In this document: piece by piece, positions 7,848 through 64,000 of the stretch
Layout: every line of letters starts with the position of its first letter
Position numbering within the stretch: the first letter of the stretch is position 1
Source of the DNA: Pseudomonadota bacterium
Lineage (GTDB): Bacteria > Desulfobacterota > Desulfobulbia > Desulfobulbales > CALZHT01
Length of the DNA stretch: 64,000 bases
Assembly (NCBI GenBank): GCA_018823135.1
Contig: JAHJJF010000051.1
Coordinates: 7,674 to 71,673 of the forward strand
Direction: 5' to 3'
The notes under the pieces: generated by a model
What the model was told of the DNA's origin: nothing
Database searches by the model: none
Seen by the model: the letters and a program-made list of their open reading frames with translations, nothing else
Made by a program: the position numbers and the translations under genes

Positions 7848-9572
7848 TCAGACGGCGAACCATACTGAAAAGGCAATAATGAAAACCGTTGTTTCCACGG
7901 CAAATTCAAGTCGGAACCCTTCGCGGAACCTGCCTTTATCGTAAAAATAAACAAGCGCCCCCTGATAGATTATTCCAGGGCCGAGCCAGTAGGCCGCAAC
8001 CGGAAGCAATCCCATCAAGGGTGCGGACAAGACAATTATTATCAGAAGTGCATTGATGACATGCAGAATAAGCAGCGTTCTTTTTTCACCGATCCAGACC
8101 GGCAGGGTCTCCTTGCCCACCAGCCTGTCACCCAGAATATCAAACACATCAAAAAGCGCGCTTCGCAGGTATGCAAGGAGGAAGACAATAATTGTCCCAC
8201 CCAGTATATAAGGCGTCACCCCCGTTGAACTTTCAAATGCCGGTACCACTACAATCACAAAAGCCCAGGCCATGGCAACAAATATCGACTTTGAGCCCGG
8301 TATTTCCTTGAGTCCTCGAACACGTGTAACAGTGGATAAGGATTTCGGAATGAACCGGACGCTGTATAAAACCCCCAATATGCTCATCCCCAGAAGCAGC
8401 AGGAAGGATTGACTTCCCATACCGAATGCCAGGGTCAGCGAACCGGTAAGGGCTATTGCCGAGGCAATCAGAAAAGTCCATCGGTAGCGGCGATAAAACA
8501 ACGCCCGGATGGGGTCATTGATTTTCTTGGAGCGCTGGTCGGTAAAACGGTTAATATTATGCATGGCAAACAGATAGCCAAATGCCAGAAAAAAATTAGC
8601 GCCGCTCTGTTCGCCGCTCAACAGCTTTCCAAAGGCATAGGCCATAAGCCCTCCACCCAGGCTTATGTAAAAATTTGTTGCAAGCAGAAGCCACAGGAAC
8701 CTATTGATTACCGGGCGGATAAGGCCGTCACTTTTCCCGGGAACCGCTTCCAGGGCCCGCACTACCCACTTTATCATCCAGGAAGGTGTTGAAGCGCCGG
8801 CAGTTACCCCGACACAATCAAATGCAGACAGTGCTTTGATGTCGAGATCTTCCTGGTTTTCGATCATGAACACCGGGCATCCCATTCCCTGGGCAATCTT
8901 GCCGAGTCTTTGGGTATTAGCGCTCGCCTTGCCTCCCACCACAACCATAGCCTGAACTTTCTCACATAATTTCCGAACTTCTTCCTGACGTTTATGGGTG
9001 GAATCGCAGATGGTGTTAAACACTTCGCCGCCGGGGAAATATTCAAGAATCTTCTGACTGATGTTCTCAAAGGATATTTCATCCTGAGTGGTCTGACTGA
9101 CAATAATATAAGGGGCGGCCACCTTCAGCTTTTCAAGGTCTTGTTCGGAACTCACTACATGGCAATTTTCTCCTGCATAACCCATGAGTCCTTCAACCTC
9201 GGCATGGTTTCTGTCACCGATGATAACCGTTGAGTACCCCTTGTTGCGATATTTCTTGATGATAACCTGAACCTTGACAACTCTCGGGCAGGTGGCATCC
9301 TGGACCCTGGCGCCGGAAGCGATCAGCTGCTGTTTCAGGGCCGGCGGAATACCATGGGCCCGGATAATAATTGTTCCCTCGCCCTTTTCAGGAACGTGAT
9401 CCAGAACCCGGACGCCTCGTTCATTGAGGAGATCCAGAACCTGTGGATTATGAATGAGCGGCCCGAACGTGGCAATGCCCTCATCCTCCTTCCGGACAAT
9501 TTCAATGGTGGTTTCCACTGCTCGTCGAACGCCCATGCAGAATCCGGCATGGGCTGCAAGAATAACTTCCAT
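7848..9572 (-). CDS. ispH: 4-hydroxy-3-methylbut-2-enyl diphosphate reductase (IspH/LytB) fused to a C-terminal UbiA-like polytopic membrane domain
   Basis: 574 aa. Residues 1 to about 277 are a full IspH with three cluster Cys (FCMG, ATCP, ICDS). Residues from about 285 to 574 are multi-TM, with DVFDILGDRLVGKETLP (UbiA second Asp-rich motif) and NRFTDQRSKKINDP at the first-motif position. Confidence 0.85.
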   Translation of the reverse strand: MEVILAAHAGFCMGVRRAVETTIEIVRKEDEGIATFGPLIHNPQVLDLLNERGVRVLDHVPEKGEGTIIIRAHGIPPALKQQLIASGARVQDATCPRVVKVQVIIKKYRNKGYSTVIIGDRNHAEVEGLMGYAGENCHVVSSEQDLEKLKVAAPYIIVSQTTQDEISFENISQKILEYFPGGEVFNTICDSTHKRQEEVRKLCEKVQAMVVVGGKASANTQRLGKIAQGMGCPVFMIENQEDLDIKALSAFDCVGVTAGASTPSWMIKWVVRALEAVPGKSDGLIRPVINRFLWLLLATNFYISLGGGLMAYAFGKLLSGEQSGANFFLAFGYLFAMHNINRFTDQRSKKINDPIRALFYRRYRWTFLIASAIALTGSLTLAFGMGSQSFLLLLGMSILGVLYSVRFIPKSLSTVTRVRGLKEIPGSKSIFVAMAWAFVIVVVPAFESSTGVTPYILGGTIIVFLLAYLRSALFDVFDILGDRLVGKETLPVWIGEKRTLLILHVINALLIIIVLSAPLMGLLPVAAYWLGPGIIYQGALVYFYDKGRFREGFRLEFAVETTVFIIAFSVWFAV

Positions 9573-9630
9573 ATTACTTTGGCTTACGATTTATAGATTA
9601 TAAAGTATGTGTATTTGCAGTTTTAAAAAT

Positions 9631-9844
9631 TGTCGGACTCGCAAAAAGCACTCGTCGGACGCGTATTTCTCCTGCAACTTATTAAAATTACAGGTGGCGA
9701 TAATTCAGAATCCGGATTTTTGCGAACCCAGCAATTTTGTCGGACTCGCAAAAAGCACTCGTCGGACGCGTATTTCTCCTGCAACTTATTAAAATTACAG
9801 GTGGCGATAATTCAGAATCCGGCTTTTTGCGAACCCAGCAATTT
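9631..9844 (-). repeat. Tandem duplication of a 107-bp structured intergenic element (2 full copies, 1 mismatch) in the ispH 5' region
   Basis: 9631-9737 and 9738-9844 are identical except A9716 versus C9823. Partial related sequence flanks both ends. The strand is assigned from G.U-only pairings (see findings). Confidence 0.9.
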
Positions 9845-10083
9845 TGCGAAGACTTTAAACATAAACACTTGCTATTGCAAGTGGCATATATGACGCTCTT
9901 TACCCGATGAGATTTAAGTTTTTTCAGCCCGCCCAAAATGTTTTTTAAAATAGAAGATTTACAATCCTTCCTTTAAGTGCATATAGTTATAATAACAAAC
10001 AATGTTTAACAGGATCCGGTTATCAACTTGATTCACCGGAATTATCTCAAAATACAGCATTTACAGTGATAAGGAGGTGCGGC

Positions 10084-10514: not shown

Positions 10515-11450
10515 ATGAAATCTTTGAAACCCATATCCCTGGACACCCTGCCGATCTTTTCATCCTATCTTGAAAAGTATCCTCCGGAAATTTCAGAACA
10601 GACATTTACCAATCTCTTTGTCTGGCGAAAATCGAGACCGGTCTGGTTTACTGAAATTTGCGGATCAATGATTATCCTGATTTCCTCAGCCGGATATGAA
10701 AAAGAAGAAAAAATAATTCTCGGCCCTCCCATCGGTCCGGCAAGCCTTACCGAAGTTATCGAATGCATACAATTTCCGTTGAAAGGGGCAATTCGAATCC
10801 CTGCAAAACATTTTCCCTCTCATGAGAATAACCAGTTACAACCCCGACAGGACCGTGACAACTGGGATTATGTTTACAAGACATCAGACCTTGCCGGTCT
10901 TGCCGGTCGTCAATTTTCTAAAAAACGTAACCACATCAAGCAATGTCTACAAAATTATGACTGTGAGTATGAATCCATTTCCCGCACCAACCTTGATGAA
11001 TGCATCCAAATGCAGAAAACGTGGTGCCATTCGAGAAAATGCGGCCAAAATCCGGGATTATGTACCGAATACATTGCCATCAATGAAGCACTCAGACATT
11101 TCGACACCCTTACGATGACAGGAGGGGCGATCAGGGTGGATGGTGCGATACAGGCATACACCCTTGGCGAAAGATTGAACCCGGAAACCGCGGTGTGCCA
11201 TTTTGAAAAAGCGCTTCCCGGTGTGAACGGCCTCTGGCAGCTCATAAACCAATGGTTTGCACAATACGCCCTGGGCGAATTCAAATATATAAATCGTGAA
11301 CAGGATCTGGGGATACCCGGGTTACGGCAGGCTAAAGAAAGTTATTATCCCGATCATTTCGTCGAAAAATTCGATCTTATCCTTTCAGGTTCCGAGATTA
11401 TACCTCTCCAAAAACCAGTGACCTGCATGGATGACGATACCGTTGATTAA
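10515..11450 (+). CDS. DUF2156 domain protein (MprF C-terminal / aminoacyl-lipid synthase-like fold)
   Basis: 311 aa. SEQTFTNLFVWRK near the N-terminus and GRQFSKKRNHIKQCLQNY...TWC in the middle match the DUF2156 pattern as I remember it. Confidence 0.65.
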   Translation: MKSLKPISLDTLPIFSSYLEKYPPEISEQTFTNLFVWRKSRPVWFTEICGSMIILISSAGYEKEEKIILGPPIGPASLTEVIECIQFPLKGAIRIPAKHFPSHENNQLQPRQDRDNWDYVYKTSDLAGLAGRQFSKKRNHIKQCLQNYDCEYESISRTNLDECIQMQKTWCHSRKCGQNPGLCTEYIAINEALRHFDTLTMTGGAIRVDGAIQAYTLGERLNPETAVCHFEKALPGVNGLWQLINQWFAQYALGEFKYINREQDLGIPGLRQAKESYYPDHFVEKFDLILSGSEIIPLQKPVTCMDDDTVD

Positions 11451-11544
11451 ATAATTGAAGTTCCACCTGCCCGCTGATCGGCGGAACAACTGATCAGAGA
11501 GCCCATCTTCAGAATTTCTGCTCCTGAGTCCCGGCATTGCAATG

Positions 11545-13950
11545 CTATTTCTTTTTTGATCTTTGTTTAATCAGCGCCAGATCGAATGCAGTCTGTATGT
11601 CATGAACAAAATGGAATTGTATGCCCTTTTTTACTTTATCGGGCATTTCCACTACATCTTTTTCATTTAAGCTTGGAAGAATCACTTCTTTGATTCCGGA
11701 ACGTATTGCGGCAAGGACTTTTTCCTTTATTCCCCCAACCGGCAGGACATCACCACGCAGGGTTATCTCACCAGTCATCGCTATATTTTTCCGCACCGGA
11801 CGCCCCGTCAACAATGATGCCAGAGCAACAACAATCGATACCCCGGCCGAAGGCCCGTCCTTGGGAATGGCTCCCTCGGGAACATGAATATGCAGATCGT
11901 TTTCAGCAAAGAGCTTATCGTTTATTTCAAGTTCCGCAGTATGAGAACGGATGTAGGTCAATGCCGCGGCAGCCGATTCCTTCATGACATCACCGAGCTT
12001 GCCGGTAAGAGACAATCCGCCTCTGCCGGTCATTTTGGCAGCTTCTATAAAAAGCAGCACGCCACCCACCGGTGTCCAGGCCAGACCCGTTGCCAGACCC
12101 GGCCCCCAGGACCGGGCTTTGGTCTCGGGAAAAAACTGTTGCAGCCCAAGAAAATTTGCCACTTCTTCCGGCGTAATAGTGACAAGTTTTTTCTTGCCGG
12201 AAACAATATCCTTTGCCACTCCCCGACACACCCCGGCAAGCTTTCTCTCGATGCCCCTTACTCCGGCCTCGCGGGTGTAGTATCTGATAATGTGGCGAAT
12301 GGCACTATCGGTAAATCGCAGATTATCGCGGGTCAGCGCATGCGCCTCAAGCTGTTTGGGAACCAGGTGCCGTTTGGCAATCATAACTTTTTCATGTTCG
12401 GTGTAGCCGGAAAGCTCGATTATTTCCATGCGGTCGCGAAGCGGCCCGGGAATATTATCAATAAAATTGGCCGTGGTAATGAACATGACCTTGGACAGAT
12501 CAAAAGGGATTTCCAGGTAATGGTCGGCAAAGGTGAAATTCTGCTCCGGATCGAGAACCTCAAGAAGCGCCGAAGATGGATCGCCCCGAAAATCCATACC
12601 AAGCTTGTCAATTTCATCAAGCATGAAAAGAGGATTATTCGAGCCGGTTTTTCTGAGACTCTGAATGATTCGTCCCGGCAATGCTCCGATATAAGTCCGG
12701 CGATGGCCGCGGATCTCAGCCTCGTCACGCACACCACCCAGGGAAATTCGCACGAACTTTCTGTTCATAGTCCTGGCGATGGACTGGCCCAGGGAAGTTT
12801 TCCCTACACCTGGCGGACCGCTGAAACAGAGAATCGGCCCATGCATGTCATTCTTCAATTTACGGACGGCAAGGAATTCGATAATTCTTTTTTTGATTAC
12901 CTCAAGACCATAATGGTCCTGATCAAGGGTTTTCTGCGCGTTATTAATATCCAGGGTATCCTTGGTGGATACTTTCCAGGGCAGCTCCAAGAGCCAGTCC
13001 AGATACGTTCTTGAAACAGTATATTCAGGAGAAGAAGGAGAAATTCTTTCCAGCCGGGCAAGCTCCTTTACCGCTGTTTTTTGAGCTTCCTCATCCAGAT
13101 CAGCTTCTTTCAGTTTTGTTTTCAGTTCTGCCAGATCAGGATTTTCCTGGTCCTCGCCAAGTTCTTTACGAATGGCCTTCAATTGTTGTCGGAGATAGAA
13201 TTCCTTCTGCTTCCCGTCCATGTCGTCCTTCACGTTTTTCTGAATCGCATTGCTCATTTCAACGGTTTCCAGTCGTCTGGAAAGCTCGCGTGATGTTGCT
13301 TGAAGGAGTTCCTTGAGGTTAACGAACTCAAGCAATCGCTGTTCTTCATCAATGGGCAGATTCAATTGAGAAATTATAAAATAGGCAACATGAGACGGTT
13401 CCTTGATTGAAGAAATGGTCATTTGTAGCTCAGAGGGCAGATTAGACAGATCAGTTAATTTCCTGAACTGGTTCTGCAAATTAAGGACAAAGGCGTCAAC
13501 TTCCTGATCAATATCTCCCTGCATGGGGTATTCTGTTACTTTTGCCTTATAAAATGGTTTTTTTTGAATGAAATCAGTCACCCGGATCCTTTTTACAGCA
13601 CTGACAAGCACTTGATAAAACCCTTCCTGGGCCTTGACCATTTTATGAATATAGCCCATTATCCCCACTGAATGAAGCTCGCCTGGAATAGTTTTTTTAT
13701 CGGCGTTTTCAGTCTGTTGCTGTGAAACAATTGCTACAAGCTTATCCCCCAGAAGCGCTTGATCGATCATCTGCTTGGATTGTGGATTCGTCACCTGCAG
13801 GGGAAATCCCATACCCGGAAAAAAAACAAATCCATAGATGGGTAATACCGACAACACTTCGGGAACCGGCAGTTGAACAGGATTCACCCCGCTGGAGGAC
13901 TTTTTTACGAAATCCGGAGTTTTTTTCATTTTATCAGGTTTATCAGTCAT
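11545..13950 (-). CDS. lon: ATP-dependent Lon protease
   Basis: 801 aa with a LON N-domain, Walker A GPPGVGKTS, and the protease motif DGPSAGV with catalytic Ser and Lys (KEKVLAA). Confidence 0.96.
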   Translation of the reverse strand: MTDKPDKMKKTPDFVKKSSSGVNPVQLPVPEVLSVLPIYGFVFFPGMGFPLQVTNPQSKQMIDQALLGDKLVAIVSQQQTENADKKTIPGELHSVGIMGYIHKMVKAQEGFYQVLVSAVKRIRVTDFIQKKPFYKAKVTEYPMQGDIDQEVDAFVLNLQNQFRKLTDLSNLPSELQMTISSIKEPSHVAYFIISQLNLPIDEEQRLLEFVNLKELLQATSRELSRRLETVEMSNAIQKNVKDDMDGKQKEFYLRQQLKAIRKELGEDQENPDLAELKTKLKEADLDEEAQKTAVKELARLERISPSSPEYTVSRTYLDWLLELPWKVSTKDTLDINNAQKTLDQDHYGLEVIKKRIIEFLAVRKLKNDMHGPILCFSGPPGVGKTSLGQSIARTMNRKFVRISLGGVRDEAEIRGHRRTYIGALPGRIIQSLRKTGSNNPLFMLDEIDKLGMDFRGDPSSALLEVLDPEQNFTFADHYLEIPFDLSKVMFITTANFIDNIPGPLRDRMEIIELSGYTEHEKVMIAKRHLVPKQLEAHALTRDNLRFTDSAIRHIIRYYTREAGVRGIERKLAGVCRGVAKDIVSGKKKLVTITPEEVANFLGLQQFFPETKARSWGPGLATGLAWTPVGGVLLFIEAAKMTGRGGLSLTGKLGDVMKESAAAALTYIRSHTAELEINDKLFAENDLHIHVPEGAIPKDGPSAGVSIVVALASLLTGRPVRKNIAMTGEITLRGDVLPVGGIKEKVLAAIRSGIKEVILPSLNEKDVVEMPDKVKKGIQFHFVHDIQTAFDLALIKQRSKKK

Positions 13951-19754: not shown

Positions 19755-21038
19755 TTACAGTAATATCCGAGGATCTGTTATGTGCCCGGCAACAGCGGCA
19801 GCAGCAGCAGTCAACGGACTCATCAGATGTACCATGCCGCCCTTGCCCATTCTGCCGTTAAAATTTCTGTTGGTAGTCGATGCGCAGACCTCGCCTGCGG
19901 CCAGCACGCCGTTGCTCATGCCGAGACAAGCCCCACAGGTGGGATTGGTGACACAGAAACCAGCATCCATGAATATTTTAATAATTCCCTCATCCATGGC
20001 TTTTGAATAAACTGCAGGAGTTGCCGGCGCCAGAATACCGCGAACATGTGCCGCGATCTTCTTTCCTTTGAGAATTCGGGCCGCCTGACGCAAATCCTCA
20101 ATTCTGCCGTTAGTACACGACCCCACATAGACCTGATCAATTACCGTTCCTTCCATATCCGAAACATCCCTGACCTCATCAGGTTTAAATCCATAAGTAA
20201 CCTGGGGCGGCAAAGAGGAAACATCAACAATTGTTTCCTTGGCATATTCAGCATCGGCATCGGAGTGCCATTTTGCAAAATCAGTAACCGCCTGCTCAAT
20301 GGAATCATAGTCTTTTTCAATGAAAGGCCAGAGGTATTCAGCGGTAACCCTATCAGGATAACAGATTCCGCAGGTGCCACCGGCTTCAATCGCCATATTG
20401 CACAATGTCATCCTTGATTCCATGGACATGCGGTCAACAACCGGACCAACGAATTCCATAACCATGTCAGTGGCACCGTTTACGGTCAGTTGCTTGATAA
20501 TATTCAGGATGACATCCTTGGCGTAAACACCGTCCTGTAATGTCCCCTGAATATTTACCCGCATGGTCTGCGGCGTCCTGAACGAACAAACACCCTTCAG
20601 AATGCCCACTTCAAGGTCGGTTGTGCCGATGCCGGCGGCAAAAGCGCCAAAGGCACCATGCGTACAGGTATGCGAGTCACCCATAATTATTGTATAGCCG
20701 GGGCGGATGAAACCTTTTTCCGGAAACAGAGCATGACAGACTCCGTTGCTGCCGATATCAAAAAAATCCCTGATTTGATGCCGGCGGGCCCAGTCTCTGA
20801 GAATTTTCGCCTGGGTTGCAGTCTTGGTATCCTTGGAAGGAGTGACATGGTCGACAACCGCCTTGATTTTTGAAGAATCGAATACCCTGTCCATACCGCG
20901 CGCCACAAGATCGTTAATTGCGATGGGCGTGGTGATTTCATGACACATAACCACATCGAGGTCCAGCACGACATTTTCCGGAGAAGGATTATCCCTTAAG
21001 TGCGCATCAAATATTTTCTGTGTGATGGTTTTACCCAT
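19755..21038 (-). CDS. leuC: 3-isopropylmalate dehydratase large subunit (short archaeal-type form)
   Basis: 427 aa aconitase-family protein with GDSHTCTHGA, VGSCTNGR and NRNFNGRMG motifs. Confidence 0.93.
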   Translation of the reverse strand: MGKTITQKIFDAHLRDNPSPENVVLDLDVVMCHEITTPIAINDLVARGMDRVFDSSKIKAVVDHVTPSKDTKTATQAKILRDWARRHQIRDFFDIGSNGVCHALFPEKGFIRPGYTIIMGDSHTCTHGAFGAFAAGIGTTDLEVGILKGVCSFRTPQTMRVNIQGTLQDGVYAKDVILNIIKQLTVNGATDMVMEFVGPVVDRMSMESRMTLCNMAIEAGGTCGICYPDRVTAEYLWPFIEKDYDSIEQAVTDFAKWHSDADAEYAKETIVDVSSLPPQVTYGFKPDEVRDVSDMEGTVIDQVYVGSCTNGRIEDLRQAARILKGKKIAAHVRGILAPATPAVYSKAMDEGIIKIFMDAGFCVTNPTCGACLGMSNGVLAAGEVCASTTNRNFNGRMGKGGMVHLMSPLTAAAAAVAGHITDPRILL

Positions 21039-21310
21039 TTAACTGAAACCTCCATATTACTAAACTTACTTTTGATTTAATAACTCAAGCCTATAAGCCA
21101 TAACTCACTATAATTATATTTTTAAACTGTATTTATAGCGGGTTAACGATTTTATAAAATATATGTAAGTATTGCCACAAATCAGGAAAGAATACTCGTG
21201 CATAAATTTTCCGTCAATAGTTAGCAATAAAAACACAAAAAACAGATTCCGCATGATGTTTTTTTCACTCGGAATTATACTGATTTCTCGGATTTATTAC
21301 TCGCCAAGTC

Positions 21311-21410
21311 TGTCGGCATCGTAATAAGCACGATCCCGACGTCTATCCCGCTTATAAATTAATGTAATTACCGGGGGCGATAATTCAGCATCTGACATAT
21401 CTCGGGGTCA
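21311..21410 (-). repeat. Copy of the ~100-bp structured intergenic element family, about 270 nt upstream of leuC
   Basis: TGTCGGCATCGTAATAAGCACGATCCCGACGTCTATCCCGC...GGGGCGATAATTCAGCATCTGAC aligns block-for-block with 9631-9737. Confidence 0.75.
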
Positions 21411-21444
21411 GTAAGTTTTGATATTGATTGATTATTCTTTAAGA

Positions 21445-21531: not shown

Positions 21532-23190
21532 ATGATCCCAATAGGGTCGCCTGGAGGGAACTTTCAAGAAAGCAACGAAAACAAAATTGATCTTATTTAT
21601 GAAATAATCAAACATGAATACGGATCAATCCCCAAACTCATATCCACCCTGATTAGCGATGTAATTGATCTTTACGAAGGTCGCTGGCCGACTCATGAAG
21701 CCTGCATGGTCAGGTACCATACCCTTGACCATGCCGTTGATGTCGCTTTGCTCACGGCGAGGATGGCTTCCGGCTGGAACAGGCAGAAAGACCTGCCGAC
21801 CTTTTCCGAAGAAACCTTTCTCTGTGGACTTGCCGCCGCGATGTTTCACGACACCGGCTATATCAAGGACAAAGGCGACAAAAAAGGAACCGGTGGAAAA
21901 TATACCTTTACTCACGAACAGCGGAGCATGAAGCTTGCCGCAAAATACCTGGCAAAACACAAATGGTCTGCCTATGCGGTTGATACCGTGCCCCGCATCA
22001 TCAGCATTACTGAATACCATAATGAACCTGATCCGAAAGCCATTTTCGAAACAGATCCGGAAGAAAATATGGCTAAAATTGTTGCCACTTCCGATCTGGT
22101 CGCCCAGATGGCAGATATTAATTATATTCAACGGATCAATGACCTGTATGCTGAAATCAATGAAGCCTATGAGTTTGATTCCACCGAGATCCTGGCGAAA
22201 CGAGGCATTCATATCTTTAGTTCCGCCCAGGAAATGATTGACGAAACCATTGGTTTTTATGACACTTTCGTGTTGCCGCGCCTGCAACAGTTTGGCCGGA
22301 TGGACCAGTACCTTGTCGGTTTTTTCGGCGGCGGCCGGAACCCCTACCTTGAAAGCATTGCGGCAAATCTCTCCGGTCATCTGATGGATAAACGCATCCA
22401 ATGGCGGCGCCTGGGAGAAATACTTGAAGAACTCGGGGTGGTTAATTCCAGGCAAATAAAAAAAGCACTGGAAAAACAAAAGCGCATTAAGGACAAAGAA
22501 GCGCAAAGAAAAACCTCCGCCTTTTCCTTACAGGGCAAGCTTCATGACTGGATGGACAGCGCTTCACATTCCGGTAAATGCCTTGGTGATATTCTGATGG
22601 AGATGGGTGTCATCGATCCGACCATTCTCCGCAAAGGCATACTCGACCAGATCATGCCCCCTGCATTGATAAATAATCTCTCCTGCAAGGAATTGATTTT
22701 TATACTCAGGATATCAATACTCCTCCAGAATATCAGCAAAGGCCCCTGGGTCTTTGATCAGATCCTGGAAATGACCAATATTCTTCTTGATTGCGAGGCA
22801 AGTTCAATTCTTCTGGCAAACGATGATGCGTCGGAAATGACCGTCCTGATCCCCACCGGTCCCAAAAGAGACTATCTGCTGAAAAAGAAAATCCCAACGG
22901 ACAAGGGCCTTGCCGGCTGGGTGTTCCGGCATGGTCAACCGGCAGTAGTTACAAATGTTGAAATCGACAAACGTTTCGATGATGAAGTGGACAGACATAT
23001 CGGCTTCATCACCCGCTCCGTTCTTGCGGTGCCCCTCCACACCAACGGTGAGATGATCGGTGTCATGGAAGTGGTCAATAAAAGAAATGCCAATTTTAAT
23101 GTGCACGACATGGACATCCTGACCATGCTTGCCAATGTTATTGCCATATCCCTTGGCGGGCTTGTCAAAATGCACGAAGATATATCCTGA
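21532..23190 (+). CDS. HD domain / GspE_N (MshEN-like) repeats / GAF domain signalling protein
   Basis: 552 aa. HD motifs (HTLDHAVDV, FHDTGY); two RLGxxLxxxGhhxxxxLxxxLxxQ-type repeats (RLGEILEELGVVNSRQIKKALEKQ and CLGDILMEMGVIDPTILRKGILDQ); C-terminal GAF (GLAGWVFRHGQPAVV...SVLAVPL). Confidence 0.82.
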   Translation: MIPIGSPGGNFQESNENKIDLIYEIIKHEYGSIPKLISTLISDVIDLYEGRWPTHEACMVRYHTLDHAVDVALLTARMASGWNRQKDLPTFSEETFLCGLAAAMFHDTGYIKDKGDKKGTGGKYTFTHEQRSMKLAAKYLAKHKWSAYAVDTVPRIISITEYHNEPDPKAIFETDPEENMAKIVATSDLVAQMADINYIQRINDLYAEINEAYEFDSTEILAKRGIHIFSSAQEMIDETIGFYDTFVLPRLQQFGRMDQYLVGFFGGGRNPYLESIAANLSGHLMDKRIQWRRLGEILEELGVVNSRQIKKALEKQKRIKDKEAQRKTSAFSLQGKLHDWMDSASHSGKCLGDILMEMGVIDPTILRKGILDQIMPPALINNLSCKELIFILRISILLQNISKGPWVFDQILEMTNILLDCEASSILLANDDASEMTVLIPTGPKRDYLLKKKIPTDKGLAGWVFRHGQPAVVTNVEIDKRFDDEVDRHIGFITRSVLAVPLHTNGEMIGVMEVVNKRNANFNVHDMDILTMLANVIAISLGGLVKMHEDIS

Positions 23191-28912: not shown

Positions 28913-30217
28913 TCAATGAGTTGCACAGGTTAGACACGGGTCAAACATCCGGATACATCTGCCAATCTGCTTTTCCCCCTGCGGTGAAATACTATTTCCA
29001 GAGATATGACCTTGCGCCAGATCCCTTAAAACCATATTGATATAGGCATTATTAAATTGCGTTGCAACCAGAAGTCGTAACCGCTCGATCTTTCCCCTAT
29101 TCACCAGATAACTATGAACCAGCACTCCACGTGGCGCTTCAACAATTCCGATGCCACGGCCGCTCACATCAAAATCAATCTCCGGTGTGGCAAGGTCCTG
29201 CAATTTTATTTTCTTGAGTAGCGCAAGGATCTGTTTTGCTGAAAGAAATATCTCAAGCAGGCGGGCAGTATCAAAGCTGTCCAAATATGTTGTCACATTC
29301 TGCTTGAGGTGTTTGGTGATTCCAAGGTCTTTGAGGTCTTCGTCCTGAAGTACGCCATTATCCTGATAGACTCGTGACAACGGTCCGACAAGAAGAATTC
29401 CCCCAGGAAATCCCATATGGGTGAGATAGGGGAATTTTGCAAATGACCAATCAACCCGAAGCTCGGAGATATGGTCTTCAAGGGAATCGCCGGAAAATTC
29501 CTGACAAACCTTGCCCTGGTCGTCAAAAACCCTGAATTTTTCCCGGCCTGGACGTCCATCATATGTAAGGAAATTAACCCGTTGCCCGGCAGGATAAGGA
29601 ATGCTGTTATGCCCGTAATGATCTTTATCAAGAGTGGAAATCAGGTGGTAGGTGGTTGCTTTAATCTCGGCCGCAATCCGTTTAATTTCATTCAGTTCCT
29701 CTTCAGTGGGCAGAATATTAAACCGGCCGACGGCCATGGACACGGGATGCACAGCGCGTTTGCCGACGATTTCGATGATGCGGTTCCCTGCTTTTCTCAG
29801 GAAAAATGCATCCTCGGCAACTTTAGGATACATCTTTTTCAGATCAAAAAGCCCCTTTGATGAACCAATCAGATCGGGATAAGTCAGAAAAAAATAACTC
29901 AAGGCGTGGCTGCTGATTCTCTCTCCCAGAAGGGCAACCTGCCGAAGCATGTCAACCGAGGGTTCCACCTCGAGGCCCAGGGCATTTTCAACCGCCCTGA
30001 AACCAGCAACCTGATGCGCTGTACTGCATAATCCGCAGATTCTGGAAATGATATGCGGCGCCAGCTCGATACGTTTGCCAATCATGATTTTTTCAAATGC
30101 TCTGAAATCCTGGACCATGAAACGCGCCGCCTTAAGCTCGCCATCTTCCACCTCAATATGGATGTCAGCATTCCCTTCAATCCGCGTTGCTTTTTGAAGA
30201 ACTATTTCCCTGCTCAC
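28913..30217 (-). CDS. [NiFe]-hydrogenase large subunit (group-3-like), no C-terminal extension
   Basis: 434 aa with N-terminal RICGLCSTAH and C-terminal DPCLTCATH followed directly by the stop codon. The GTG start overlaps the small-subunit stop (GTGA). Confidence 0.9.
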   Translation of the reverse strand: MSREIVLQKATRIEGNADIHIEVEDGELKAARFMVQDFRAFEKIMIGKRIELAPHIISRICGLCSTAHQVAGFRAVENALGLEVEPSVDMLRQVALLGERISSHALSYFFLTYPDLIGSSKGLFDLKKMYPKVAEDAFFLRKAGNRIIEIVGKRAVHPVSMAVGRFNILPTEEELNEIKRIAAEIKATTYHLISTLDKDHYGHNSIPYPAGQRVNFLTYDGRPGREKFRVFDDQGKVCQEFSGDSLEDHISELRVDWSFAKFPYLTHMGFPGGILLVGPLSRVYQDNGVLQDEDLKDLGITKHLKQNVTTYLDSFDTARLLEIFLSAKQILALLKKIKLQDLATPEIDFDVSGRGIGIVEAPRGVLVHSYLVNRGKIERLRLLVATQFNNAYINMVLRDLAQGHISGNSISPQGEKQIGRCIRMFDPCLTCATH

Positions 30218-32073
30218 CTGACCCTCATTTTATTAATTTCATTGGAGACCATATCCTGTCTGAGGCTGAATAAGCCGTATTCCTGTTGCTGCAGTTTTTT
30301 TGCAATCTTACGGACATCCTTACGCTCCAGATTGCATCTCTTGGTCAATGAGTCGATGACCACTTCACCATAAGATGATCCATCATATAATTTTTTAAAA
30401 ACCATGTCAGATGGACCTCTGCATCCCCAACAGGACAAACCGTTTTTAGTACAGACGCCGCCGCAACCGCCGCGGGTGAGAAATCCCAGGCAGATCATGC
30501 CATTGGAAACGAAACAGATATTGCTGTCGTCGCTTGCAGAAAACGACTGCAGAGAATTTGAATTATTCCTGGTCACCTTCCGACCGCATTCAGCGCAAAC
30601 CACAGGTGCCACCTTTGGAAATTTTTCGCCATTCATTTCGGAGATGAGATCCATCAAAAGTCGAGGCTGGGGCGGGCAGCCGGCTAAAAAAAAGTCGACC
30701 CTGACATAATTTTCAAGATTCCTGGCTCGCCTGAGGAGGCTGACCCCTCTTTCCTGGTAGGTTGTTTGCAGATCTATGCCGCCCTTGCCTGAAAGATAAT
30801 AAGAAAAAGCATCATGGGCCATGCCATAGGTCTCCTCAATCAGCTCCTCAAGTTCAAAGCGATTGGCCATAGCCGGGACTCCTCCGGTTGCGGCGCAGGT
30901 TCCCCAGGCAATGAGAATTCGAGACTTGTTTCTAGCTTCTTCCAGAATATTCACATCATCTTTAAGACGGACCGCGCCTTCCACCAAGGCAATGTCAACT
31001 TCGGGTATTTCGTCCTGATCCAGAAGCATCGGGCAGTAAACGATTTCCACATTACTCTTAAGCAGTTCATCAAACACCGGGTCATCAATAAGCACTGCAG
31101 AGCACCCCGAGCAGGAAGACAGAGATATCATCGCGATTTTTATGGTTTGCTTTTTGCTGACTAGCGCGCCCCAATTCTGCGGGATAAGGGTGGAGGCCAT
31201 ATACGGGTTGGCGAGCAGAGCATTCTGCCTTCTTAATCGTAAAATCAGAGACTGGAGAATATGAAGGGCGAGTTCGGGTTTTTTTCGAATCTTTTCAAAA
31301 AATTCATCCTGGCTCAACGATACCAACAAAGTCTTTGAGGTAGCCAGAGCAGTGGCTGTTCTCTTGCAACCGCTGATAGTTGCCATCTCTCCAAAAAAAC
31401 CACCGGGGCCAAGAGTGGTGAGCACACATTTTTCTTTTCCGGATTGAATACTTACCTCGATAGAACCTTGTGCAACAAAAAACATAGACTTGGCAGACTC
31501 CCCTTCTTCAAAAATAACCTGGCCCTGCTCCACCCACTCCTCATTGCCTTCAGCATTCCAGATTTTCGAAATGTCTTTAACGGAAATGTCATTCCAGAGA
31601 ATTCCCTGGAAATCCTTTGTCCCGGTGCTGACCATTTTTGAAATGAGGGCACCGGGGCTTAACTCCTGGCTCATACCGAGAGCCAGACGCAGTGTTTCAT
31701 TTTCCACTGCCACTTCCCTGACTTTCTGACTGGATTGGTGTATACGCAGAATAATGCCGCGAAGCAGATGCAGAGAAACACCTGAGTCCTGCCGCATCTT
31801 TTCAAGAAGTGCTTCCCTGGTAAAACAAAGAAGTCGAGTTCGCTCGATTGCTTTGACGGTTGTAAGACGAAGATGGTCGGGAAGCAAGGCAACTTCACCA
31901 AAAAATTCCCCCTTTTCAAGAATGCAGAGGGAGACATTCTCCTCACCTCTCTTGTGGGAAACTTCAACCGCGCCGGATTGGATGATATACAATGAATCGC
32001 CAGAATCATCCTGCTTATATATCACTTTACCTTTTTCATATACGGCACCAAAAAGGTCTTCACCCGCGTTCAT
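30214..32073 (-). CDS. Fusion protein: two cyclic-nucleotide-binding domains plus [NiFe]-hydrogenase small subunit
   Basis: 619 aa. Residues about 1-290 hold two cNMP-binding domains (FGEVALLPDHLRLTTVKA and FFGEMATISGCKRTATALA). From about residue 308 there is a small subunit with SSCSGC, GTCAATGG and AGCPP cysteines, plus distal-cluster cysteines CAEC, GGCGGVC and CWGCRGP. Confidence 0.85.
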   Translation of the reverse strand: MNAGEDLFGAVYEKGKVIYKQDDSGDSLYIIQSGAVEVSHKRGEENVSLCILEKGEFFGEVALLPDHLRLTTVKAIERTRLLCFTREALLEKMRQDSGVSLHLLRGIILRIHQSSQKVREVAVENETLRLALGMSQELSPGALISKMVSTGTKDFQGILWNDISVKDISKIWNAEGNEEWVEQGQVIFEEGESAKSMFFVAQGSIEVSIQSGKEKCVLTTLGPGGFFGEMATISGCKRTATALATSKTLLVSLSQDEFFEKIRKKPELALHILQSLILRLRRQNALLANPYMASTLIPQNWGALVSKKQTIKIAMISLSSCSGCSAVLIDDPVFDELLKSNVEIVYCPMLLDQDEIPEVDIALVEGAVRLKDDVNILEEARNKSRILIAWGTCAATGGVPAMANRFELEELIEETYGMAHDAFSYYLSGKGGIDLQTTYQERGVSLLRRARNLENYVRVDFFLAGCPPQPRLLMDLISEMNGEKFPKVAPVVCAECGRKVTRNNSNSLQSFSASDDSNICFVSNGMICLGFLTRGGCGGVCTKNGLSCWGCRGPSDMVFKKLYDGSSYGEVVIDSLTKRCNLERKDVRKIAKKLQQQEYGLFSLRQDMVSNEINKMRVR

Positions 32074-61051: not shown

Positions 61052-61696
61052 TTAAGAGAGATACCCGAGGATGGTCTCGCCGGCAACTACCTTCTGACCA
61101 ACGGTCACCTCCAGTTGAACCTGCAATGGAAGATATAAATCAACTCTTGAGCCGAACCGGATAAGACCGAACCTTTGTCCCTTGCCCAAACGGTCACCCT
61201 TGACAGCCCAGCAGACTATGCGGCGGGCGATGAGGCCTGCAACCTGGACAACAGCCATCTTGCGGCCTGATTCGGTGGTTATGATCAAGGCGTTACACTC
61301 GTTTTCAAGGGCACCGCGTTCCGAGTTTGCAGAAAAAAAATGTCCCTGGGAATAACGGATTTTTGTCACAAGTCCCGGAAATGGCATCCTGTTCACATGG
61401 ACATTGAATACATTCATGAAAATACTGAGCTTATACACATGCTCCTTGACATATTTATCGTCGAATATCCTTTCAATGGTAATAATTTTCCCGTCTGCCG
61501 GAGCAACCAGAACATCTTCTTCTTCAGGAGATATTCTTTCAGGGTCACGGAAAAAGTACAGGACAAAACAAGTGATCAACAATGATGTCAACGCGAGGAT
61601 ATCATATCTCAGCAAACCGAATACAATGGCCATCAAAGCAGCAAAGCCGATAAACGGGTAGCCTTCGAGGGCAACGGGAACTCGTGGTTCTTTCAT
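61052..61696 (-). CDS. psd: Phosphatidylserine decarboxylase proenzyme (short form)
   Basis: 214 aa with an N-terminal TM, and the FGSR self-cleavage site in GLIRFGSRVDLYLP. Confidence 0.9.
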   Translation of the reverse strand: MKEPRVPVALEGYPFIGFAALMAIVFGLLRYDILALTSLLITCFVLYFFRDPERISPEEEDVLVAPADGKIITIERIFDDKYVKEHVYKLSIFMNVFNVHVNRMPFPGLVTKIRYSQGHFFSANSERGALENECNALIITTESGRKMAVVQVAGLIARRIVCWAVKGDRLGKGQRFGLIRFGSRVDLYLPLQVQLEVTVGQKVVAGETILGYLS

Positions 61697-61724
61697 ATAA
61701 TCATCATCAGAAATAGTTTGTTGT

Positions 61725-61820
61725 TGTCGGCTTGTAAAAAAGGACGATGCCGACGAGTATTCCTCTAATAATTTATTGAAATTATTAGAGGCGACATTAC
61801 TGTGTCCGAATTTTTACATG
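61725..61820 (-). repeat. Copy of the ~100-bp structured intergenic element family in the psd leader
   Basis: TGTCGGCTTGTAAAAAAGGACGATGCCGACGAGTATTCCTCTAATAAT-TTATTGAA-ATTATTAGAGGCGACATTAC...TTTTTACA. It has a perfect 11-bp central stem and a closing TGTAAAAA/TTTTTACA stem. Confidence 0.8.
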
Positions 61821-61937
61821 GTCTCAATCGTTCAATGCTGTCAAAAAAACCACGTAAAACCAGATAACACTATGGCATAAAATAAGCAATAATGTAACTC
61901 CGGATTTGCTCAGCAGGACACTTTTTGTTGTATGCAA

Positions 61938-61976
61938 TAAATCAAAGGGCAGACCATCTTATGATGACCTGCCCCA
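61938..61976 (-). terminator. Probable rho-independent terminator after ilvN
   Basis: The minus-strand RNA reads GGGGCAGG-14 nt-UCUGCCCU (6 Watson-Crick pairs plus 2 G.U) followed by UUGAUUUAUU. Confidence 0.5.
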
Positions 61977-62072
61977 GGAATTGTAATATATGTTTTCCCG
62001 ATGTTAAATCCACGACAAGATATCAGGAATGATCTCTACTCTCCGGCTATCAGACAGAAATGCTCCAGAAAA

Positions 62073-62555
62073 TCAGTTTTTCCTGGCTCTTACCATTGCA
62101 ATGGTGCCGGTTCTGATGATTTCCTGAATACCAATTGGCCTGAATATATCAATAACCGCCTGAATCTTGCTGGCAGTCCCGGTAATTTCAACGGCATAGC
62201 TTTTAGGGCTCACATCAACAACTTTACCACGGAAAATATCGATGGTCCGCAAAACTTCGGCTCTGGTTTCCGAGTCGGCCTTGACCCTGATAAGAGCCAT
62301 CTCCCGTTCGACATTTTCAACTTCATTCATATCCGTAACTTTGATCACGTCAATAAGCTTATGAAGTTGTTTGGTTATCTGCTCGACAATATTATCATCA
62401 CCATCTGTTACCAAAGTGAGACAGGAAACATCATTATCCAGTGTGGGAGCGACGGCAAGACTTTCGATATTGAAGCCTCGGCCACTGAACAGTCCTGTTA
62501 CCCTTGAAAGAACTCCAGGTTTGTTCATCAATAATACAGAAATTGTGTGTTTCAT
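62073..62555 (-). CDS. ilvN: Acetolactate synthase small (regulatory) subunit
   Basis: 160 aa. MKHTISVLLMNKPGVLSRVTGLFSGRGFNIESL is a classic ACT-domain N-terminus. Confidence 0.94.
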   Translation of the reverse strand: MKHTISVLLMNKPGVLSRVTGLFSGRGFNIESLAVAPTLDNDVSCLTLVTDGDDNIVEQITKQLHKLIDVIKVTDMNEVENVEREMALIRVKADSETRAEVLRTIDIFRGKVVDVSPKSYAVEITGTASKIQAVIDIFRPIGIQEIIRTGTIAMVRARKN

Positions 62556-62604
62556 AGTTTTACCCTAATCAATTATGAATACATAAACAGTCAAAATTAG
62601 AAAT

Positions 62605-62706
62605 TATCGACATCGTCAAAAGCACGATGCGCAAGCGTATTCCGCCTTTCACTTTTTAAATAATTGAAGGCGATAATCCAACATCAGACTTTTCGGAGTT
62701 TCGCAT
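62605..62706 (-). repeat. Copy of the ~100-bp structured intergenic element family in the ilvB-ilvN spacer
   Basis: TATCGACATCGTCAAAAGCACGATGCGCAAGCGTATTCCGCCTTTCA...TGAAGGCGATAATCCAACATCAGAC aligns with the 9631, 21311 and 61725 copies. Confidence 0.8.
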
Positions 62707-62742
62707 CTATTATTTTCCTGCGAGACCATCGTTAATTTCCTG

Positions 62743-64000
62743 TTAGACCAACAGCATTTCCGTGGTAGCTTTTCCCGCCGGAACCATTGGATAAACACCC
62801 TCTTCCCTGGCAATAACAAAATCCATAATAACCGTATTATCAGTAGCGAGAGCTTCCCTGATTACCGGCTCAACCTCGCTGGGTTTCGTGGCTCGCAACC
62901 CGACTGCGCCGTAAGCCTGAGCAAGGGCGACAAAATCCGGGGCCGTTTCCAGTCCGGTATGGGCATATTTCTTATCGTAGAACAATTCCTGCCATTGTCG
63001 AACCATTCCCAGATAATTATTGTTGAGGATTGCAACTTTGACAGGCAACTTATATTGCCGGGCGGTTGCAAGCTCTTGAATATTCATTTGAATACTGCCA
63101 TCCCCGGCAATATCAATAACCGTCCTGTCCCGAGCCGCCATCTGGGCGCCGATCGCCGCAGGCAGACCATAGCCCATAACCCCAAGACCACCAGATGTAA
63201 GGAAAGTCCGGGGATGATTGAAATGGTAAAACTGCGCGGCCCACATCTGGTTCTGGCCGACCTCGGTTGAGATAATCGCATCACCATTGGTTAATTCATG
63301 CAGTTTCTGGACAACAAATTGTGGCTTGATGACATCCGGCACCTCTAAATATCCAAGGGGATGTTTGATCTTCCAGTCACTAATCTGCTCAAGCCAGGCT
63401 TCATGTTTTTCCGCAGATTCTTCCTTTTTAAATTCATCATTCCGGTCAAACCAGGTATTCATCGCGGTGAGCGCATGCTTGCAATCCGCAACAATAGGTA
63501 TATCAACCCTGACATTCTTACTGATTGATGATGGATCAATGTCAATATGAATGATTTTGGCGTGCGGCGCAAAAGCATCAATCCTGCCGGTTACCCGATC
63601 ATCAAATCTCGATCCCACGGCAATAAGCAGATCGCAGTTGGCTACCGCCATATTCGCATAATAGGTTCCGTGCATCCCAAGCATCCCCATAGACAGAGGA
63701 TCGGTTCCGGGAAACCCCCCCAATCCCATGAGTGTCATGGTGACCGGAACCGACAATTTCGTTGCCAGATCGGTTAATTCTTCATGTGACTTGGAAGCAA
63801 TAACGCCGCCGCCGGCATAAATAACCGGTTTCCTGGCTTTCATAATTGCTTTGCAGGCCTTTTCAATCTGACCCGGGTGCGGCTCATAGGTCGGCCGGTA
63901 TGTACGCATCTTAACCGGTTTCGGTTCGGGGAAATTAAACATTGCGCTAACAATATCTTTCGGCAGATCAACGAGAACCGGACCCGGTCGACCAGTCCGC
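62743..64000 (-). CDS. ilvB: Acetolactate synthase large subunit (5' end outside the window)
   Basis: The reading frame is open to the window edge (…GRPGPVLVDLPKDIV…). The TPP-binding motif GDGSIQMNIQEL is present, and the stop is at 62743. Confidence 0.94.
   Translation of the reverse strand, partial: RTGRPGPVLVDLPKDIVSAMFNFPEPKPVKMRTYRPTYEPHPGQIEKACKAIMKARKPVIYAGGGVIASKSHEELTDLATKLSVPVTMTLMGLGGFPGTDPLSMGMLGMHGTYYANMAVANCDLLIAVGSRFDDRVTGRIDAFAPHAKIIHIDIDPSSISKNVRVDIPIVADCKHALTAMNTWFDRNDEFKKEESAEKHEAWLEQISDWKIKHPLGYLEVPDVIKPQFVVQKLHELTNGDAIISTEVGQNQMWAAQFYHFNHPRTFLTSGGLGVMGYGLPAAIGAQMAARDRTVIDIAGDGSIQMNIQELATARQYKLPVKVAILNNNYLGMVRQWQELFYDKKYAHTGLETAPDFVALAQAYGAVGLRATKPSEVEPVIREALATDNTVIMDFVIAREEGVYPMVPAGKATTEMLLV

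Follow-up and report, generated by a model that had tools for sequence, protein, structure and literature searches.

The window, i.e., the whole stretch of 64,000 nucleotides analysed here, belongs to the MAG of an uncultured sulfur-cycle bacterium of the Desulfobulbales and carries a partly palindromic unit of ~105-107 bp, present in five copies at four loci (Table 1). The first locus is a tandem pair, of which copy 1 lies 58 nt upstream of an ispH-ubiA fusion gene (7848-9572, minus strand); its two units are 99% identical at a period of 107 nt, the product of one very recent tandem duplication. Copy 3 has leuC on one side (minus strand, 19755-21038) and an HD-GAF gene on the other (plus strand, 21532-23190), in the intergenic region from which these two genes diverge. 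Copy 4 follows the ilvN terminator and precedes the start codon of psd (61696) by 27 nt, while copy 5 sits in the 187-nt spacer between ilvB and ilvN, 32 nt past the ilvB stop codon and 48 nt ahead of the ilvN start codon. In NCBI, the ilvN product has a 100% match that bears the name acetolactate synthase small subunit. The intrinsic-terminator-like hairpin that follows this gene is a piece of context outside the repeat, which separates ilvN from the psd-proximal copy.

Table 1. Coordinates of the repeat copies and of neighbouring features in the window.
Feature	Position	Strand	Remarks
Copy 1 (c9630)	9630..9736	+	R1 96.2 bits; first unit of head-to-tail tandem pair
Copy 2	9737..9843	+	R1 96.6 bits; second tandem unit
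Copy 3 (c21310)	21310..21416	+	R1 89.1 bits
Copy 4 (c61724)	61724..61830	+	R1 86.1 bits
Copy 5 (c62604)	62604..62710	+	R1 79.9 bits; most decayed copy
Terminal inverted repeat, left arm, tandem locus	9626..9649		AAAATTGTCGGACTCGCAAAAAGC
Terminal inverted repeat, right arm, tandem locus	9822..9845		GCTTTTTGCGAACCCAGCAATTTT
ilvN (acetolactate synthase small subunit)	62073..62555	-	ACT and ALS_ss_C domains; bracketed by copies 4 and 5
Terminator-like hairpin and T-run after ilvN	61946..61975	-	13-bp stem, 7 GC pairs, tail TTGATTTATT

Copies, orientation and transcriptional context

The five copies had been pointed out in a sequence-only reading of the window, and pattern search, alignments, a repeat finder and the sequence-only model R1 place them at the same positions on the plus strand (R1: 80-97 bits; E 1e-24 to 1e-29), with four matches to a 31-nt degenerate pattern in the window versus 0.00 expected. 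The 5' blocks, the GGCGA(T/C)A block and the hairpin arms quoted in that reading are likewise present in the sequence, and every copy does lie upstream of or between minus-strand genes. When R1 is run with filters off over the window and both contig flanks, no further match exceeds 16 bits, and the count stands at five in ~79 kb of the MAG. The four distinct copies share 60-65% pairwise identity in a nearly gap-free alignment (one 1-nt indel), and R1 self-hits on the opposite strand indicate a weak palindromic symmetry of the whole unit. All five copies are confined to intergenic DNA and have no coding potential, the reading frames differing between the tandem units without any consistent ORF. 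A small peptide was considered and discarded, the 16-codon ORF of c62604 occurring in that copy only and not being conserved.

The transcriptional contexts of the copies differ: one is inside the ilvBN operon, one is downstream of a terminator, and those of the ispH and leuC loci are upstream of promoters predicted by consensus scans. Moreover, the downstream genes (ispH-ubiA, leuC, psd and ilvN) are functionally unrelated, and the distances to their start codons amount to 27, 48, 58 and about 270 nt. At face value, a link with branched-chain amino acids might be suspected, as three of the four loci adjoin ilv or leu genes, and so does a partial copy in a more distant relative (L013, see below). 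This apparent link is partly due to ascertainment, because L013 was fetched via ilvN and two of the window copies are only 0.8 kb apart, and a branched-chain amino-acid regulon found no support when tested with the leuC orthologous loci. As for the single orientation of the copies, to which the sequence-only reading gave weight, it is true but statistically uninformative, since there are only four loci (P about 0.06-0.13) and the whole window, with its uniformly negative GC skew, lies on one replichore.

Several known types of signal were looked for in the copies. A hairpin followed by a U-run is found on neither strand of any copy, which speaks against a terminator function and is consistent with the repeat being tolerated inside an operon. 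The L013 copy contains a good -24/-12 match to a sigma-54 promoter (TGGAGCGGTTTTTGC), while in the window copies CG, AT or other bases take the place of GG, and AC that of GC, and this candidate was rejected for the family. Outward sigma-70 -35 elements at the gene-proximal end (TTGCGA, TTACGA, TTTACA, TTGACG) are not followed by a suitably spaced -10 in the flanks, and were rejected as well. Finally, inspection did not reveal a consistent match to the IHF consensus WATCAANNNNTTR across copies.

These data bear on two of the alternative explanations. According to the first, the copies would be a multi-copy family of sRNA genes, read from the plus strand and antisense to the leaders of the minus-strand genes. 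Some such families do combine tandem and dispersed copies in one orientation, and the conserved GGCGATAAT includes a -10-like GATAAT, with a promoter-like match of 9/12 in c62604. However, the promoter-like site does not recur at the aligned position in the other copies, no copy has a plus-strand terminator, the family has no match in Rfam, and in two of the four copies shuffles fold as well as the plus strand, so that we regard an sRNA family as very improbable. The second alternative is a module acting at the DNA level, domesticated or spread for its binding site for a protein such as an IHF-type nucleoid protein or a global regulator, by analogy with RIB/RIP BIMEs and Correia elements. It would account for the fixed spacing over about 90 gap-free columns and for the AT-rich centre, which in L013 and in three of the distinct window copies lies between two GC-rich half-sites of a palindrome (TGTCGG...CCGAC), while predicted promoters adjoin the element at the ispH and leuC loci. 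Yet the half-sites are degraded in c62604 and imperfect in c9630, a convincing IHF consensus is, by inspection, missing from some copies, no sigma-70-type promoter is conserved at an aligned position, the invariant positions are unclustered, and no binding protein is known. Such a module is an unlikely explanation.

Hairpins, common fold and conservation

The copies differ in the hairpins that they can form, even though the central region of each of them contains some hairpin. In c61724, the central hairpin is a perfect 13-bp stem (61762-61774 with 61779-61791; z -6.5 against shuffles); the sequence-only reading had been right about its perfect pairing and wrong about its length, given as 11 bp. 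The 5' hairpin of the same copy measures 12 bp, and 61733-61740 forms an internal inverted repeat of 8 bp with 61811-61818. The 5' hairpin of c21310 (11 bp, at 21311-21341) has a z-score of -3.9. The central hairpin is marginal in c62604 (z -2.0) and no more stable than shuffles in c9630 (z 0.0) and c21310 (z +0.1), and its register varies, the best i+j sums being 107, 107, 108 and 110/111.

The outer stem described earlier, with the pair CGCAAAAA/TTTTTGCG replaced by TGTAAAAA/TTTTTACA, is real and present in two of the four distinct copies. At the four mismatched positions of this stem in c9630, the minus strand has three G-U wobbles and one unpaired position, versus one wobble and three unpaired positions on the plus strand. 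This possible strand-specific signature was dropped, as the 5' hairpin of c61724 is better on the plus strand and no strand is consistently favoured. At the tandem locus, i.e., in the best-preserved subfamily, the ends form a terminal inverted repeat of 24 nt with 20/24 matches (9626-9649 versus the reverse complement of 9822-9845). No terminal inverted repeat was found in c21310 and c62604, and c61724 only has its 8-bp internal one. None of the inverted-repeat pairs is flanked by a direct repeat, although the ends are too imprecise to exclude a duplication of 2-3 bp.

The stems had been presented as covarying, and as a statistical property this does not hold, since covariation is within the range of shuffled controls for both sets of stems, in a test that has low power with its four distinct sequences. 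For the outer stem and central hairpin, 73% of cells pair, versus 38-52% when the partner is slid, while 98/500 shuffles reach the covariation score and 170/500 have at least as many pairs with changes on both sides; for the 5' hairpin, the corresponding figures are 45/500 and 208/500. No common fold emerges either: the minimum-energy fold changes from copy to copy, and on neither strand are the thermodynamic z-scores consistent. Likewise, what had been described as conserved blocks cannot be distinguished from uniform divergence. Mean pairwise identity is 63-72% per 15-column bin up to column 90, invariant columns are unclustered (runs test P = 0.8), and 42/105 columns are invariant where about 36% would be expected, by our own calculation, from a neutral star tree with 62% pairwise identity. 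Finally, a search of the whole window against Rfam gave no match at gathering thresholds (permissive searches returned sub-threshold unrelated hits only).

From these results, we can weigh the possibility that the copies are structured cis-acting RNAs selected by the host, which would be read on the gene-sense (minus) strand as part of operon spacers or 5' UTRs and would act on how the downstream gene's message is processed, translated or kept stable, maybe in connection with branched-chain amino acids. The shared orientation relative to the downstream gene (L013 included), the vicinity of ilv and leu genes, the near gap-free alignment at such low identity, the recurrent central hairpin and the pairing excess of the proposed stems over slid controls all go in this direction, as do the gene-sense folds of three of the four copies (z -2.4 to -3.8). 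Against it stand the lack of a shared fold, a central hairpin in shifting register, covariation that shuffles match, conservation not concentrated in blocks, variable distances to functionally unrelated genes, the part of ascertainment in the amino-acid link and the position of two copies upstream of a likely promoter, and hence outside the UTR. Considering also that the orthologous sites of all relatives examined and the region upstream of the host's own ilvB are without the element (see below), we hold such an RNA to be unlikely. For the same reasons (no common fold, unfixed hairpin register, covariation no higher than in shuffles, differing contexts, and orthologous sites without the element in the relatives examined), the initial interpretation of the family as a selected RNA or DNA structure, in the sense of a new cis-regulator or sRNA class, is not supported.

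Orthologous sites in relatives

About 184 kb of DNA from relatives was compared, covering the orthologous ilvB-ilvN, ilvN-psd, ispH-upstream and leuC-upstream regions, and in all relatives examined the element was found at none of these four sites. The ilvB-ilvN spacer measures 29 and 35 nt in two of them (L015 and L016) versus 187 nt here, and the ilvN-psd spacers of relatives range from 35 to 177 nt versus 376 nt here. The two nearest relatives (66% and 63% identity) do not have the element in front of ispH, nor do three relatives with conserved synteny in front of leuC. In the host genome itself, it was not found upstream of ilvB. Because the spacers and upstream regions of relatives are without the element, the copies represent lineage-specific insertions; as far as sequence comparison goes, the repeat is thus shown to have inserted at its sites.

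One more distant relative has a partial copy upstream of ilvB (L013/L014, 8167-8226; E 8e-4), which is 80% identical to c9630 over 35 columns and has the same orientation relative to the downstream gene as the window copies; its mqnA-ilvB spacer is 370 nt long, versus 174-199 nt in L015 and L016. Searches of wider collections added no confirmed copy. A strict pattern built from the four copies, and verified on the window, had no match in JGI metagenomes and IMG/VR, a null result that bounds only near-identical relatives. A looser pattern of the 5' block retrieved four loci in IMG/VR, of which none was confirmed by R1, and blastn (word size 11) gave no match in plasmids and phages.

Likeness to known repeats and probable origin

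ERIC (or IRU) sequences are non-coding imperfect palindromes of about 127 bp, located in intergenic regions including operon spacers. Related species differ in whether an orthologous site carries a copy, how these sequences spread is unclear, and co-transcription puts their hairpins in mRNA. The repeat resembles them in being a quasi-palindromic 107-bp unit that occupies the ilvB-ilvN spacer and is missing from the orthologous sites of relatives. However, there is no sequence similarity between the two, ERIC are known from Enterobacteriaceae and Vibrionaceae rather than Desulfobulbales, only five copies are seen here (in ~79 kb), and, away from the tandem locus, the palindrome spanning the whole unit is weak.

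REP palindromes are sometimes paired in inverted doublets, which measure about 100 nt and fold into one long hairpin. The likeness to REP, REPIN and BIME lies in the palindromic, extragenic nature of the repeat and in a gene-sense 5' hairpin that begins with CGTCGG; unlike in the doublets, inverted similarity between the two halves of the unit extends over no more than about 20 nt. REP units proper are palindromes of 20-40 bp that carry GTAG or CGTC as an unpaired tag at one end, and those with CGTC have a stem of 8-9 bp, a loop of 4-5 nt and a CCA tail (PMC3733652). Here, CGTC lies in the stem, the loop has 7-9 nt and there is no CCA tail, so that an assignment to tagged REPs was rejected. 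Moreover, c9630 and c62604 do not have the hairpin at a significant level, and a gene for a RAYT, the Y1 transposase that mobilises such elements, was not seen in the ~79 kb.

MITEs are defined as non-coding elements of 50-800 bp that have terminal inverted repeats of at least 10-15 bp and target-site duplications of 2-10 bp, and that are mobilised in trans; some enterobacterial and Vibrio families have pairwise identities below 75% (PMC11602168). Like Correia and NEMIS in Neisseria, RUP in Streptococcus and Chunjie in Geobacter, the repeat is small (~100-150 bp for this group), non-coding, intergenic, organised in subfamilies and inserted in a lineage-specific manner. It is multi-copy (five copies of a 107-bp unit), absent from orthologous sites in all four regions of relatives, and has an inverted repeat at the ends of the tandem locus (24 nt, 20 matches). 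A target-site duplication of 2-10 bp, whether TA or other, was not found. It further differs from described MITEs in that two of the four copies lack the inverted repeat, in that no parent IS or transposase was found in the ~79 kb, and in a pairwise identity lower than in most described families.

PATEs derived from IS200/IS605 were also considered, given the subterminal hairpins, the uniform orientation on one replichore and the absence of target-site duplication. By inspection, the left junctions of the four loci share no tetra- or pentanucleotide target, and this assignment was rejected; unlike in PATEs, the two hairpins do not resemble each other in sequence, and one is variable between copies, while TnpA/TnpB are not nearby. 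For a structured cis-regulatory RNA, one would look for an Rfam match, a single structure supported by covariation (at low power with four distinct sequences) and a conserved gene association, and none of the three was found.

Altogether, the copies probably constitute a lineage-specific family of small, non-coding, quasi-palindromic dispersed repeats of the MITE/ERIC type, and the repeat looks like an ordinary miniature mobile-DNA family rather than a new regulatory RNA. A REP/BIME-like or small mobile palindromic element was among the options put forward from the sequence at the outset, and this part of the proposal fits the multi-copy, intergenic, lineage-specific insertions and the tandem duplication, as well as the terminal inverted repeat of one subfamily and the partial copy elsewhere in another lineage. 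The copies may have been spread by a transposase supplied in trans and acting on their inverted ends. The hairpins and the paired changes at the ends would then reflect constraints on transposing "master" lineages or subfamilies, not selection on resident copies, which would have decayed in a roughly neutral way after insertion. Where a copy is co-transcribed, as expected in the ilvB-ilvN spacer, its hairpins would end up in the mRNA and may incidentally alter processing or stability, as for ERIC, Correia and REP.

Some observations count against a mobile repeat: no target-site duplication was identified, a terminal inverted repeat is not recognisable in two of the four distinct copies, no transposase or RAYT gene was found in the ~79 kb, all copies have one orientation, four of the five loci (L013 included) are beside branched-chain amino-acid genes, and, as regards mobility, a Logan contig of the same species has identical copies at the same sites. 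Furthermore, copies of only 60-65% identity align with almost no gaps, which suggests that their length is constrained in a way not expected from pure neutral decay, and the perfect 13-bp hairpin of c61724 appears too good for such decay, its chance being about 0.62^13, or 0.002, by our estimate. Along with the common orientation and the outer stem's two paired changes, these features are the basis of one last reading, in which a Desulfobulbales lineage would have recruited a length-constrained, orientation-specific structured module, either as an operon-internal or leader RNA tuning ilv/leu and lipid-synthesis genes, or as a new palindromic element transposing as a single strand, with hairpins under selection and an orientation following replication. 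We see little probability in this reading.

If the miniature mobile repeat that we favour proves abundant genome-wide, it would be a Desulfobulbales addition to the catalogue of bacterial miniature repeats and could serve as a strain-typing marker. It opens no long-standing question and its main use is in annotation, where copies should be masked before searching these intergenic regions for riboswitches or sRNAs. The family also explains the unusually long spacers in the otherwise compact ilvB-ilvN-psd cluster of the MAG, and the breaks of short-read assemblies upstream of ispH in this species. In a Logan assembly of this species, the break falls within the repeat.

Copies of the repeat in the window

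A degenerate pattern for the ~100-bp repeat matched four times in the window, against 0.00 expected from shuffles, and the five copies were recovered independently with a repeat finder and MAFFT alignments and by R1, a sequence-only covariance model of the repeat, which scored them at 80–97 bits (E 1e-24 to 1e-29). Five copies in one orientation, as the sequence-only reading had it, are real. With filters off, R1 detected no further copies in the window and its contig flanks L001 and L018 (~79 kb in total); its next-best matches were the copies' own opposite strands (8–14 bits), which betrays a weak palindromic symmetry. Among the four distinct copies (c9630 standing for the tandem pair), pairwise identity is 60–65% in all pairs, i.e., star-like, and the alignment contains a single 1-nt indel. 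The JGI metagenomes and IMG/VR returned zero matches to a strict pattern built from the window copies, a strictness that leaves room for diverged relatives.

Repeat copies and other features of the window (z-scores of local hairpins)
Feature	Position	Strand	Central hairpin z	5' hairpin z	Remarks
Tandem copies 1 and 2 (c9630)	9630–9736, 9737–9843	+	0.0	-0.2	Head-to-tail, period 107 nt, 106/107 positions identical; divergent intergenic region, 58 nt upstream of ispH-ubiA fusion gene
Copy 3 (c21310)	21310–21416	+	+0.1	-3.9	~270 nt upstream of leuC, divergent region facing HD-GAF gene
Copy 4 (c61724)	61724–61830	+	-6.5	-5.3	27 nt upstream of psd, downstream of strong terminator-like hairpin after ilvN
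Copy 5 (c62604)	62604–62710	+	-2.0	-0.7	Within ilvB-ilvN spacer
ispH-ubiA fusion gene	7848–9572	-			IspH/LytB (residues 3–274), UbiA-family prenyltransferase domain (residues 307–546)
Terminator-like hairpin	9866–9883	-			CACTTGCAATAGCAAGTG then TTTATGTTTA; abuts distal end of tandem pair
Hydrogenase-like gene pair	28913–32073	-			
Terminator-like hairpin	61946–61975	-			13-bp stem and T-run

The shared orientation is real, but with only four independent loci its significance is limited (P about 0.06–0.13). Moreover, since GC skew is negative across the whole window, replication-linked and transcription-linked orientation biases are inseparable.

Orthologous sites in related genomes

By exact-protein look-up, the window falls on contig JAHIYX010000075.1 of MAG GCA_018814865.1, which is labelled "Proteobacteria bacterium". 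The closest protein relatives of the window are found in Desulfurivibrionaceae, Thiovibrio and other Desulfobulbales, and the lineage is isolated, inasmuch as its IspH-UbiA protein has no match above 66% identity in the protein collection. Syntenic loci of relatives (~184 kb in total) were obtained through exact-protein look-ups of homologues. The ilvB-ilvN spacer, which is 187 nt long in the window, measures 29 nt in L015, 35 nt in L016 and roughly 45 nt in L013 (as deduced from an extended ilvN gene call), and the repeat is absent from all three; likewise, the ilvN-psd spacer spans 376 nt in the window vs. 35, 107 and 177 nt in relatives, again devoid of the repeat. Upstream of ispH, the tandem pair has no counterpart in the nearest relatives (L020–L022), and the copy upstream of leuC has none in L027–L029, which share the divergent HD-GAF/leuC arrangement. 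It follows that all four window loci are lineage-specific insertions. For the same species, one Logan contig has copies at the ilvN sites that are identical to those of the window. Another, L019 (SRR2540949), terminates upstream of ispH within the repeat, of which it covers no more than the first 30 nt (contig positions 1–30), so that the tandem repeat is a break point of the short-read assembly.

The sole R1 match in relatives (L013/L014, 8167–8226; 15.6 bits, E 8e-4) is partial: in the first 35 columns its identity to c9630 is 80% (core 17/18), and thereafter 44%. This match, 74 nt upstream of ilvB, sits in a 370-nt spacer whose length is 174–199 nt in L015 and L016, and it faces the gene in the same way as the copies of the window. 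Another lineage thus carries the insertion of a related element, at a site other than those in the window. In gene sense, L013 8185–8200 (identical in L014) reads TGGAGCGGTTTTTGC, a well-spaced sigma-54 -24/-12-like motif (GG-N10-GC), of which the GG and GC are missing from the window copies. A link of the repeat to ilv/leu genes is weak, because two window copies are 0.8 kb apart, L013 was fetched for its ilvN, and relatives are without the repeat at all these genes. A variant of the pattern hit a locus in a SAR324 MAG (JANQGX010000077.1, L009 2119–2173, + strand; R1 16.2 bits), which resembles c62604 beyond the pattern-forced positions (TATCGACATC 10/10, TTTAACTTTTTAAAC 13/15). The resemblance may be due to chance, the DNA being AT-rich, or the locus may be a very remote relative.

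Selected structure or mobile element

The sequence-only reading favored a selected structure with covarying stems and conserved single-stranded blocks. Explicit pair counting finds 73% of cells paired in the proposed structures vs. 38–52% with partners slid, which shows palindromic symmetry. For the outer stem and central hairpin, the covariation score was equalled in 98 of 500 column shuffles and the pairs changed on both sides in 170/500; for the 5' and central hairpins, these figures were 45/500 and 208/500, so that the covariation measures do not rise above the shuffles. At four distinct sequences these tests have little power and leave the RNA reading unsupported rather than disproved. 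The outer-stem contrast (CGCAAAAA/TTTTTGCG vs. TGTAAAAA/TTTTTACA) is real; of the four distinct copies, only two have the stem. As for the central hairpin, its register relative to the gap-free flanks differs (best i+j sums 107, 107, 108 and 110/111), hence the changes are not compensatory at homologous pairs in all copies. Single-sequence folds vary from copy to copy on either strand (z -0.3 to -4.5, dinucleotide shuffles). Conservation is flat over columns 1–90 (63–72% per 15-column bin), invariant columns are unclustered (runs test P = 0.8) and their fraction (42/105) is near the 36% that a neutral star tree is calculated to give when pairwise identity is 62%; the blocks are therefore statistically no different from the rest of the repeat. 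Across the whole window, Rfam, a check named in that reading, gave zero matches at gathering thresholds, and permissive searches of 9500–9950 and 61600–62800 gave only unrelated sub-threshold matches. The reading as a structural RNA finds no support.

In the simplest account, the copies belong to a lineage-specific family of miniature quasi-palindromic repeats (MITE/ERIC/Correia type). Such a small mobile palindromic element, raised as an alternative in the sequence-only reading, is probably the best explanation. The family fits MITEs in part, these being defined by a terminal inverted repeat of at least 10–15 bp and a target-site duplication of 2–10 bp (PMC11602168). The tandem locus has a terminal inverted repeat of 24 nt with 20 matches (9626–9649 vs. 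9822–9845), of which c61724 retains only 8 bp and c21310 and c62604 none; no target-site duplication was found at the repeat loci, and the ~79 kb of window and flanks encode no transposase or RAYT. Neutral decay of resident copies leaves unexplained both the perfect 13-bp hairpin of c61724 and the near absence of indels, which would stem from constraints on transposing master lineages (subfamilies). Alternatively, the hairpin could result from template-switch "perfection" of a quasi-palindrome. The GTAG/CGTC REP family (PMC3733652) was rejected, as the repeat's tag is paired and its stem, loop and tail mismatch the definition.

Neighboring genes

The two-domain IspH-UbiA architecture occurs in all of the best 120 homologues, which come from Desulfobulbales/Desulfobacterales MAGs. 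No minus-strand gene ends near the terminator-like hairpin at the tandem pair. In a relative with an IspH 63% identical (L021/L022, 2429–9841), a HicAB and DUF6036 island lies between an mprF-like gene and ispH, and just past the mprF-like gene come genes for AbiEii and for an AAA_14/DUF4143 ATPase. Several lineages seem to have a hotspot for insertions in the stretch between the mprF-like gene and ispH. Considering the terminator-like hairpin and the long spacer after ilvN, compared with only 35 nt to psd in L016, the ilvBN-psd-pssA-leuA cluster seems split into separate transcription units in the window lineage. L013 lacks the pssA gene (CDP-alcohol phosphatidyltransferase) between psd and leuA, which are separated there by a 430-nt spacer (11280–11711); the window genome, L015 and L016 have the gene. 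Finally, a NiFe-hydrogenase large-subunit-like gene is paired with a gene for an unusual, sensory-looking fusion of two cyclic-nucleotide-binding domains and a hydrogenase small-subunit/NuoB-like (Oxidored_q6) domain.
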